A DNA stretch of 64,000 nt from Candidatus Onthousia excrementipullorum (GTDB lineage Bacteria; Bacillota_I; Bacilli_A; RF39; UBA660): positions 5,624 to 69,623 of the forward strand of contig DVHC01000062.1 of the NCBI GenBank assembly GCA_018712385.1, in the 5' to 3' direction. Every line of letters starts with the position of its first letter. Positions within the stretch are counted from its first letter, which is position 1. The position numbers were made by a program, and so were the translations under genes. The notes below the pieces were generated by a model. It did not search any database and was not told where the DNA came from. It was given only the letters and a program-made list of their open reading frames with translations. Below are positions 16,254-17,443 of the stretch, piece after piece.

Positions 16254-16991
16254 CTAATTTTGCATATCAACATCTACTTGTTCTAAAAGACTTTTATACT
16301 TTTCTAATTTTTCATCTAACCTTTTTTGACACTTTTTAAATACTGTTACCAAGTCTTCACTATCGCCTGTTTTTTGGGCTTTATATAGAGCATTTCTATA
16401 TTCATCATCATATTTATCATCTATAGCGATTAAGTCAATATTACATTCTAAGCATTGTTTTAGAATAATAAATCTACCTATTCTGCCATTGCCATCTTGG
16501 AAAGGATGAATTTTTTCAAATTTATAATGGAAATCTGCTATATCTTTTAAGGTAACTGTTTCTAGTTCGTTATAATCAGATAATAAATTAAACATTAAGT
16601 TATCAACTTCAACAGGCAATGCTAATTTTAAATCTACACCTCTTAATTTGTTTTCATATTTTTTCCACATACCAATATTGTGTATCTCATCATCAACTGT
16701 TCCTTTTTTTAGTAGTTTATGCCAATTAAATAACATAAACTTATCTAATTTTTCGCCACTATCATTAATTACTTGGTCAAAGACTTCTAAAGAGTTCTTT
16801 GTTTCAATTATATCGTCTAGGGAGTGGCTACCTTCAACTTTCTTTTCAGTTAAAAGTTTTTCTAATTCATCTTTAGAGAAAGTACTTCCTTCTAAATGAT
16901 TAGAATGATATAAAAACTCTATTTTTAAATCTTCATATATTGAATTAGTAATTTTTGATAAATACTTCATTTTCTTACTATTAATTTTCAT
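16254..16991 (-). CDS. class II Fic-domain protein (AMPylase-type) with intact catalytic motif and N-terminal autoinhibitory motif
   Basis: 245 aa; HPFQDGNGRIGRFI is the canonical Fic motif. The N-terminal SNHLEG matches the (S/T)xxxE(G/N) inhibitory helix. Confidence 0.8.
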   Translation of the reverse strand: MKINSKKMKYLSKITNSIYEDLKIEFLYHSNHLEGSTFSKDELEKLLTEKKVEGSHSLDDIIETKNSLEVFDQVINDSGEKLDKFMLFNWHKLLKKGTVDDEIHNIGMWKKYENKLRGVDLKLALPVEVDNLMFNLLSDYNELETVTLKDIADFHYKFEKIHPFQDGNGRIGRFIILKQCLECNIDLIAIDDKYDDEYRNALYKAQKTGDSEDLVTVFKKCQKRLDEKLEKYKSLLEQVDVDMQN

Positions 16992-16999
16992 AACATCAC

Positions 17000-17443
17000 C
17001 TACTTTTGTAATGATAACTTTTTAGTTAAACTTATTTCATTATTTGATTTTTCTTTGTTAAATTTTAATATCTCTTTTATATTTTCATCAGCAGTACCTA
17101 CAAGCTTTACGACATTAGGCAATTCATAAAATGCAACTGTATTTTCTATACTAAATTCATCTTCTGTTATAGAGCATAAAAAAGTTTTCTTATTAAGAGC
17201 TATAGACATTCCTAGTTCAATATGAGCGCCTCTTCCTGCTGGCAATAGTATAACTACAACATCAGAATTCATTACACCTTCTTGTTCTAATTTAGCATAT
17301 TCTCTTATTTCATCTATATTAATATCACTATTAATGTTCTTTACCCAATTGTAGGTTTGCTCCCAACCAGCTTCTTTTAACTTTTCTTGATAATATTCTA
17401 CTAGTTTAGCATTTTTCATTCCAGACCCAACATAAAACTTCAT
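17000..17443 (-). CDS. nucleoside 2-deoxyribosyltransferase-like protein (NDT/Rcl fold)
   Basis: 147 aa; N-terminal KFYVGSGM and GAHIELGMSIALNKK resemble the NDT motif with catalytic Glu. Only 8 nt separate its stop from the Fic gene start, so they are co-transcribed. Confidence 0.5.
   Translation of the reverse strand: MKFYVGSGMKNAKLVEYYQEKLKEAGWEQTYNWVKNINSDINIDEIREYAKLEQEGVMNSDVVVILLPAGRGAHIELGMSIALNKKTFLCSITEDEFSIENTVAFYELPNVVKLVGTADENIKEILKFNKEKSNNEISLTKKLSLQK

Follow-up and report, generated by a model that had tools for sequence, protein, structure and literature searches.

Probably separate accessory genes for a nucleoside 2-deoxyribosyltransferase-like protein and a class II Fic protein, likely to share a promoter, in a variable slot next to spo0A in Candidatus Onthousia

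We analyzed two adjacent genes in a stretch of 64,000 nucleotides (nt) from Candidatus Onthousia excrementipullorum (assembly GCA_018712385.1, contig DVHC01000062.1, positions 5,624 to 69,623 of the forward strand; this whole stretch is the window in what follows), one of which encodes a 147-amino-acid (aa) protein resembling nucleoside 2-deoxyribosyltransferases (NDTs) and the other a 245-aa protein of the Fic family. An earlier note on this DNA had taken the two for co-transcribed partners in a nucleotide-centred conflict system, with an accessory ATPase gene next to them. Our analysis points to a simpler arrangement, which we consider probable, namely that Candidatus Onthousia has here two accessory genes for separate enzymes, which use a common promoter in a variable slot and do not make up an interdependent system. 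On this view, they came to have one promoter in common by occupying the slot between the terminator of spo0A and the promoter of the ATPase gene; we infer co-transcription, along with the catalytic activities, substrates and targets of the two proteins.

One part of the case for separate genes is their distribution within the genus. Three alleles are present at this one locus in Candidatus Onthousia, a genus of the chicken gut, with both genes (loci L009, L011-L015, L017, L081 and L084), with the NDT-like gene only (L001-L004) and with the Fic gene only (L010, L082 and L083). One further locus (L016), from a species-level metagenome-assembled genome, has both genes, with the Fic gene (2178-2914) split by a frameshift in an A-run; either Fic is a pseudogene there or the homopolymer was misassembled. 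In the NDT-only allele, a few nucleotides from the beginning of Fic ('aaattaatagt') persist ahead of the common terminator, and the three Fic-only contigs have one common junction, where the promoter survives along with ~12 nt similar to the 3' end of the NDT-like gene. Because remnants of the missing gene are recognizable in both single-gene alleles, the most parsimonious history would be a two-gene ancestor followed by two independent deletions. Each gene persists intact without the other, and both are dispensable in natural strains.

Both are real genes rather than chance open reading frames (ORFs), given their low ratios of nonsynonymous to synonymous substitution rates (dN/dS) and the presence of the exact proteins on 88 (Fic; HIR59611.1, 'Fic family protein') and 104 (NDT-like; HIR59612.1, 'group-specific protein') public contigs, both records being from Candidatus Onthousia excrementipullorum. 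Between species, Fic has a dN/dS of 0.04-0.07 and the NDT-like gene one of ~0.11, and dS, at 0.26-0.35 for both genes and ~1.0 for Fic in the comparison with O. faecavium, tracks that of the flanking core genes. Because dS is near that of the flanks and dN/dS lies within 0.04-0.11, both genes can be judged functional and vertically inherited, as opposed to recent imports. In two comparisons (Fic in L010 and the NDT-like gene in L001), the retained gene has a lower dS than its flanks; the counts are small, and this hints at allelic recombination.

The site that the genes occupy is itself variable. A metagenome scan seeded with spo0A yielded 80 loci, with spo0A identity from 98% down to 69%, and the order pgk-(GT4)-tpi-spo0A-ATPase-gpmI-(dinB) recurs throughout; typically, ~100-130 nt separate spo0A from the ATPase gene and 9-30 nt separate the latter from gpmI. 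Loci with the NDT-like and Fic genes in the spo0A-to-ATPase gap all belong to a clade with a spo0A identity of 91% or more, and ~50 syntenic loci at greater distance lack both genes. The pair was added to this gap in that clade only, which agrees with its earlier description as accessory to the spo0A/glycolytic neighbourhood. A contiguous run of glycolytic genes in relatives, which that description had implied, was not found: in all relatives examined, these genes are interrupted by the GT4, spo0A and ATPase genes, and the GT4 insertion within the glycolytic cluster is kept across most of the wider lineage. The gap is a permissive slot, because in other lineages it holds unrelated cargo, including an antisense NUDIX gene, a second tandem AAA_14 ATPase gene, a TnpB-like gene together with murF/ddl, and several unknown genes (L087, L088, L091, L099, L100, L103, L110, L130-L132, L146, L151 and L157).

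Outside the genus, the two families were not found together. A survey of the NDT-like family that covered one genome per GTDB species gave 68 loci, 6 of them from Onthousia, mostly in uncultured gut Bacilli or 'Tenericutes'. Fic genes, sought within 5 kilobases (kb) of the NDT-like gene by tblastn and with the motif HxFx[DE]GN[GK]R, were detected in five of the six Onthousia loci and in none of the 62 others. In 21 of these 62, a conserved 133-aa protein is encoded 10-14 nt downstream of the NDT-like gene, and in 10 loci a NUDIX hydrolase follows it. Conversely, CdFic-like homologues (40-52% identity; CdFic is the Clostridium difficile Fic protein) are encoded on plasmids of Clostridium and Macrococcus and a phage-plasmid of Clostridioides, where they adjoin partition/replication genes; in six such plasmid/phage loci, a hidden Markov model (HMM) of the NDT-like family detected no NDT-like gene and Fic stands alone, and none of the non-Onthousia spo0A loci has an NDT-like gene. 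The 133-aa protein (MKKVVIAGSAKLQ...GYIGxExxAELxFGLAQ), which occurs among L029, L037, L044, L046-L049, L053, L055-L059, L061, L062, L067, L071 and L078, has no Pfam or PDB match; its identification as a second NDT paralogue was rejected as unproven, a profile-profile comparison with the NDT-like family giving a probability of 2%. Fusions of NDT and GNAT domains are present in three loci (L023, L024 and L038).

These distributions bear directly on the proposal that the pair is a two-gene, nucleotide-centred conflict module in which Fic would be a toxin or sensor and the NDT-like protein a co-effector or modulator, acting by nucleotide depletion or by removal of an AMP product. Such a module would be compatible with the 8-nt coupling and the common promoter, with the adjacency kept genus-wide under purifying selection, with the variability of the locus among strains and with the match of Fic to the PADLOC family PDC-S04. 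It is at odds, however, with the intact single-gene alleles of close relatives, with the lack of NDT-Fic adjacency in the 62 other NDT-family species and the six other Fic contexts, and with the features of the proteins themselves, an inhibitory helix being built into Fic and an antitoxin motif missing from the NDT-like protein (see below). Furthermore, the NDT-like protein has no credible PADLOC match (only a partial one to JetB, E 2e-4), scans of IMG/VR with Fic and with the alignment of the NDT-like family recovered no close relatives of either, and, in the sole test found, a native host from which a PDC-S04 gene had been deleted showed no phage-defence phenotype (10.1101/2024.12.20.629700). 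Together with the independent loss of the two genes, this makes the conflict combination suggested in the earlier note distinctly unlikely.

Searched singly, the 147-aa protein matches PF05014 with 22.4 bits, below the gathering threshold of 28.8 (E 1.4e-4), and PDB 4JEN with E 0.013; such a single-sequence match does not by itself make a secure NDT assignment. An exhaustive phmmer search (E < 1e-3) delineated a family of 1053 clusters at 50% identity, most members of which are stand-alone proteins of 125-140 aa. Of 49 diverse members chosen to represent it (27-55% identity to the query), all but one match PF05014 (best E 9e-11), and the profile of the 49 sequences, compared with PDB, retrieves the CMP N-glycosidase BcmB (4JEN; E 7.6e-9) and the Chroococcidiopsis enzyme CtNDT (E 2.6e-7), as well as BlsM and MilB. 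In an AlphaFold2 model of the 147-aa protein (pLDDT, the predicted local distance difference test score, 86; predicted template modelling (TM) score 0.81), the top Foldseek matches all have the NDT fold (BcmB, CtNDT, DNPH1, MilB and the Desulfotalea NDT; probability 1.00, TM score up to 0.79). Because the Pfam matches across the family, the comparison of the family profile with PDB and the modelled fold concur, the predicted membership of the protein in the NDT/DNPH1/CMP-N-glycosidase superfamily is secure. The NDT/Rcl-fold assignment made from the single sequence thus falls below the Pfam threshold and nevertheless holds by family profile, fold and the GAHIELG nucleophile motif.

In the family alignment, Y4, E76 and G78 are invariant. 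In the profile alignment, E76, located in GAHIELG, falls on E88 of CtNDT and E53 on D62, and Y4, in the N-terminal KFYVGSG, matches the N-terminal Y7 by position; Y7, D62 and E88 are the residues altered in the deposited CtNDT structures Y7F, D62N and E88Q/A. Because Y4, E53 and E76 match these mutated residues, we predict that the NDT-like enzyme is catalytically active. Both its GxHxELG motif and its closest matches lean to the nucleotide N-glycosidase branch (BcmB, MilB and DNPH1) over the true transferases. The protein consists of a core of ~128 aa and a poorly conserved C-terminal tail, of which the last ~17 residues form a low-confidence helix in the model and are missing from most family members; in O. 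faecavium, the tail is out of frame or truncated. The possibility that this upstream gene encodes a FicA-type antitoxin was considered and rejected: inspection of the 147-aa translation by eye revealed no (S/T)xxxE(G/N) inhibitory motif, and the fold is NDT-like.

The 245-aa protein matches the Pfam family Fic (PF02661) with E 6.1e-16 and 59.5 bits, the gathering threshold being 24. The catalytic loop H162-PFQDGNGRIGR173 (16473-16508) has an intact HxFx(D/E)GNGRxxR motif, and an inhibitory motif, S30-NHL-E34-G35 (16887-16904), preceded by Y-H, is located N-terminal to the Fic core in the same polypeptide. The nearest solved structure is that of CdFic (PDB 4X2E; E 5e-45, residues 11-205). The segment H-S30-N-H-L-E34-G-S-T-F is aligned on HSNKIEGSTF of CdFic, in which the equivalent S and E residues are replaced by Ala in the deposited mutant 4X2C, and the catalytic loop H162-PFQDGNGRIGRF is aligned on an identical CdFic loop. 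Because both the inhibitory motif and the catalytic loop align with those of CdFic, the protein is classified by its sequence as a class II Fic, with an N-terminal intramolecular inhibitory helix and an intact loop; the Pfam match and the alignment to 4X2E bear out what had been reported for these two motifs. According to secondary citations (PMC8097203), CdFic is not known to have a physiological target, auto-AMPylation takes place with the inhibitory glutamate present, and the monomer is the more active form. Because CdFic auto-AMPylates despite this glutamate, 'autoinhibited' is a structural label for the protein described here, and regulation as such is a prediction. The window encodes a second Fic-domain protein, of 295 aa (9657-10544, plus strand; PF02661, 31.9 bits; PADLOC SoFic, E 5e-12), with a degenerate catalytic loop, LQLFDDGNTRYAR, in which the catalytic His is lost; its gene lies 11 nt upstream of a PHP-domain gene (10556-11449, plus strand), and a counterpart adjoins PHP in L002.

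If active as predicted, the NDT-like enzyme would cleave or exchange the base of a nucleoside or (deoxy)nucleoside monophosphate via a covalent ribosyl-Glu76 intermediate and might serve in salvage or in sanitising of the nucleotide pool. In the Fic protein, His162 of the HPFQDGNGRIGR loop would use ATP to place AMP on a side-chain hydroxyl of some target or of Fic itself, and Glu34 of the SNHLEG helix would obstruct productive ATP binding. A loose metabolic coupling of the two can be conceived, in which Fic is a housekeeping regulatory AMPylase/deAMPylase of the EfFic/FICD kind and the NDT-like enzyme recycles the nucleotide by-product. The strong purifying selection on both genes is in line with this scenario, as is the auto-AMPylation by CdFic with the glutamate present (PMC8097203); in addition, class II/III Fic proteins in which the inhibitory Glu is present can change from AMPylation to deAMPylation and back (PMC6408439). 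Given that both genes are dispensable in natural strains, that their coupling is confined to one genus and that CdFic-like proteins have no known target (PMC8097203), we give metabolic coupling hardly any credence.

As for expression, the element TGaTATAAT 5' of the NDT-like gene is kept in all three alleles and is located directly 5' of Fic in the Fic-only allele; it has a poor -35 and is not among the promoter-scan results, and is the probable promoter of the two-gene transcript. RNA folding gives no strong hairpin between the NDT-like and Fic genes. The 8-nt spacer, the promoter-like element and the lack of an intervening hairpin make co-transcription likely, so that this part of the earlier account holds as probable; the O. 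faecavium lineage has a spacer of ~80-105 nt rather than 8 nt. That terminators bracket the pair was found to be well founded on one side. The hairpin with a U8 run after Fic folds with -15.7 kcal/mol (z -2.26; equalled or bettered in 4 of 200 shuffled sequences) and is retained 3' of the NDT-like gene in the Fic-less alleles, whereas the element after spo0A, a 5-base-pair stem with a T-run, is weak (-7.1 kcal/mol, z -1.1), its stem and T-run being kept in all aligned relatives; the terminator scan reported neither of the two. Because the ATPase gene has a predicted promoter of its own, the TTGACT of which is kept in relatives, it appears to be a transcription unit apart from the pair.

This ATPase gene is a core syntenic gene rather than an accessory one, because it stays in place next to spo0A and gpmI in loci with spo0A identity as low as 69% and keeps the tight spacing to gpmI; its dN/dS of 0.05-0.07 is comparable with those of housekeeping genes. 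The synteny across ~50 loci, with 9-30 nt to gpmI throughout, does not support its earlier listing as part of the accessory set. In PADLOC, the ATPase matches PDC-S01 (E 3.3e-109), and Fic matches PDC-S04 (E 1.3e-86, residues 6-229) and, more weakly, SoFic (E 3e-19). The PDC families are 'guilt-by-embedding' candidates, mostly unvalidated (PMC12988326), and the ATPase keeps its place in the gene order over such distances that typical defence-gene dynamics are unlikely for its branch. Searches for traces of mobility found nothing in phage records for the NDT-like protein (tblastn), no direct or inverted repeats at the flanks of the kind that delimit mobile elements, no tRNA genes anywhere in the window and no integrase marking insertion of the pair. 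Of the suspected phage or defence-island context, there remain the PADLOC candidate labels of Fic and the ATPase, and no phage or mobile-element signature.

The strong full-length PADLOC matches raise the question whether the spo0A-to-gpmI segment is a defence islet of single-gene systems, with Fic as PDC-S04, the ATPase as PDC-S01 and the NDT-like protein as a passenger or third effector. The slot takes diverse cargo, some strains have an extra gene between the ATPase gene and gpmI or a second AAA_14 gene, and homologues of Fic are encoded on phages, satellites and plasmids, all of which would fit an islet. The conserved synteny, gpmI spacing and housekeeping-like dN/dS of the ATPase are nevertheless unlike those of a mobile defence gene, the PDC families are candidates of the kind noted above, and the further flanks of the locus consist of ribosomal, RNA polymerase and glycolytic genes. 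We consider a defence islet unlikely.

Several observations weigh against the two genes being functionally separate. They are adjacent and probably co-transcribed genus-wide, with flank dS up to ~1-1.7, and ~10 of the 17 distinct contigs keep both, which would fit a weak functional link as well. The Fic-side survey covered six plasmid/phage contexts of more than 5000 homologues. PADLOC classes Fic and the adjacent ATPase as defence candidates, and NDT-like domains are known as defence effectors elsewhere, in retrons. These points could be accommodated by a genus-specific immune or stress module in which activation of Fic would be coupled to N-glycosidic destruction of nucleotides by the NDT-like enzyme, possibly together with the PDC-S01-type ATPase-nuclease, the single-gene alleles being decayed or partly functional; we find this very improbable and favour two separate accessory enzymes. 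A retron effector reading was also tried and rejected, as the ORFs from pgk to the 173-aa ORF encode no reverse-transcriptase domain and no noncoding RNA was found; an Rfam search of positions 12000-23000 gave no match above threshold and one sub-threshold small nucleolar RNA model.

The features of the locus are listed in Table 1. All genes in the interval 11481-22137 of the window are on the minus strand, and the ORFs, the spacings of 8 nt within the pair and 11 nt from the ATPase gene to gpmI, and the position of the pair between spo0A and ATPase/gpmI are as originally described; Fic is 140 nt from the ATPase gene. The G+C content is uniform at ~26-31% and does not shift where the pair lies, and contig CALVIV010000013.1 holds a locus 100% identical to that of the window.

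Table 1. Genes and predicted signals of the locus, in order from pgk to beyond gpmI
Feature	Position in window	Strand	Basis or remark
pgk	20953-22137	-	ORF and Pfam
GT4 glycosyltransferase gene	19660-20928	-	between pgk and tpi
tpi	18999-19730	-	longest ORF, TTG start
180-aa ORF without family match	18444-18986	-	between tpi and spo0A
spo0A	17566-18357	-	upstream neighbour of the pair
Weak terminator-like element after spo0A, AAGAC...GUCUU stem then UUUUUAUUUU	17527-17557	-	read from sequence
Extended -10-like element TGaTATAAT, 5' of NDT-like gene	17491-17499	-	read from sequence
NDT-like gene, 147 aa	17000-17443	-	ORF
Predicted catalytic residues of NDT-like protein	Y4 17432-17434; E53 17285-17287; E76 17216-17218	-	alignment
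Spacer between NDT-like and Fic genes, 8 nt	16992-16999	-	Shine-Dalgarno AGGTGA (16996-17001) overlaps NDT-like stop codon
Fic gene, 245 aa	16254-16991	-	ORF
Terminator-like hairpin AGCUGUAGAAUU...AAUUUUAUAGCU then U8 run, 3' of Fic	16181-16227	-	RNA fold
Sigma-70-like promoter of ATPase gene, TTGACT-17 nt-TATACT	16147-16175	-	promoter scan, 10/12 matches
AAA_14 + DUF4143 ATPase gene (COG1373-type), not part of the pair	14836-16113	-	Pfam; Walker A GTRQVGKT
gpmI	13328-14824	-	beyond ATPase gene
173-aa unknown ORF, then DinB-type polymerase gene	beyond gpmI	-	gene order

Other parts of the neighbourhood also differ among relatives. The GT4 gene overlaps the longest tpi ORF by 71 nt (19660-19730, minus strand), and the gene callers used for relatives put the tpi start later. 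The 180-aa ORF has no Pfam, NCBIfam, PADLOC or PHROG match; its counterpart is 164-173 aa long in some relatives and is absent in L001-L004. In L092 (463-2008), the tpi-to-spo0A gap holds a pair of genes for 285-aa and 224-aa proteins, and the EQDRHEENWG stretch of the former may, judged by eye, be HipA-kinase-like. The interval from gap to pgk is variable as well, with a DUF5071 protein in the window (22483-22926, minus strand), an acyltransferase and a hybrid histidine kinase in L001-L004 and a cadherin-like protein in L009; in L010 and L011, it is empty.

As both proteins are members of known superfamilies and already have public records, their weight as a discovery is small. The analysis provides a better annotation for an NDT subfamily that is uncharacterised, comprises ~1000 clusters at 50% identity and is common in gut Bacilli; the recurrent neighbours of this subfamily, the 133-aa protein and the NUDIX hydrolase, point to nucleotide metabolism. 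More generally, tight adjacency and suggestive domain pairs can come from chance co-residence in a variable slot, and an ATPase labelled PDC-S01 in PADLOC can be a deeply conserved core syntenic gene, which calls for caution in censuses of defence systems.

Among known systems, the closest to the Fic protein is CdFic (4X2E, with 4X2C/4X2D the inhibitory-motif mutant), a stand-alone, single-domain class II Fic without a known target. Approximately half of the aligned positions are identical over residues 11-205, the lengths are 235 aa and 245 aa, respectively, the HSNxxEGSTF helix occupies an equivalent position and the two HPFQDGNGRIGRF loops do not differ. The host of CdFic belongs to Clostridia, in contrast to Bacilli incertae sedis here, and the Fic gene described here is chromosomal, in a spo0A/glycolytic neighbourhood. 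With the NDT-superfamily N-glycosidases (BcmB, 4JEN; MilB; DNPH1/Rcl) and the type II NDTs (CtNDT, 8QC0), the NDT-like protein has in common a Rossmann-like fold, with CtNDT also the predicted catalytic positions and with BcmB the GTHxExG motif. Identity to the solved members is, however, just 13-27%, and the subfamily has its own motifs, W33 and LLPxGRGxH, and no characterised member. Likeness to the PADLOC models PDC-S04 (Fic), PDC-S01 (ATPase + PD-(D/E)xK) and SoFic consists in HMM matches, full-length for both PDCs; unlike the locus described here, the two PDCs are unvalidated single-gene candidates that include no NDT-Fic pair, and the ATPase here is a syntenic core gene. Finally, as in the class I Fic toxin-antitoxin systems FicT/FicA and VbhT/VbhA, a small upstream gene lies translationally close to the Fic gene; in the locus described here, by contrast, the inhibitory helix is within Fic itself, the upstream protein has an enzyme fold and no inhibitory motif, and a natural Fic-only allele exists.

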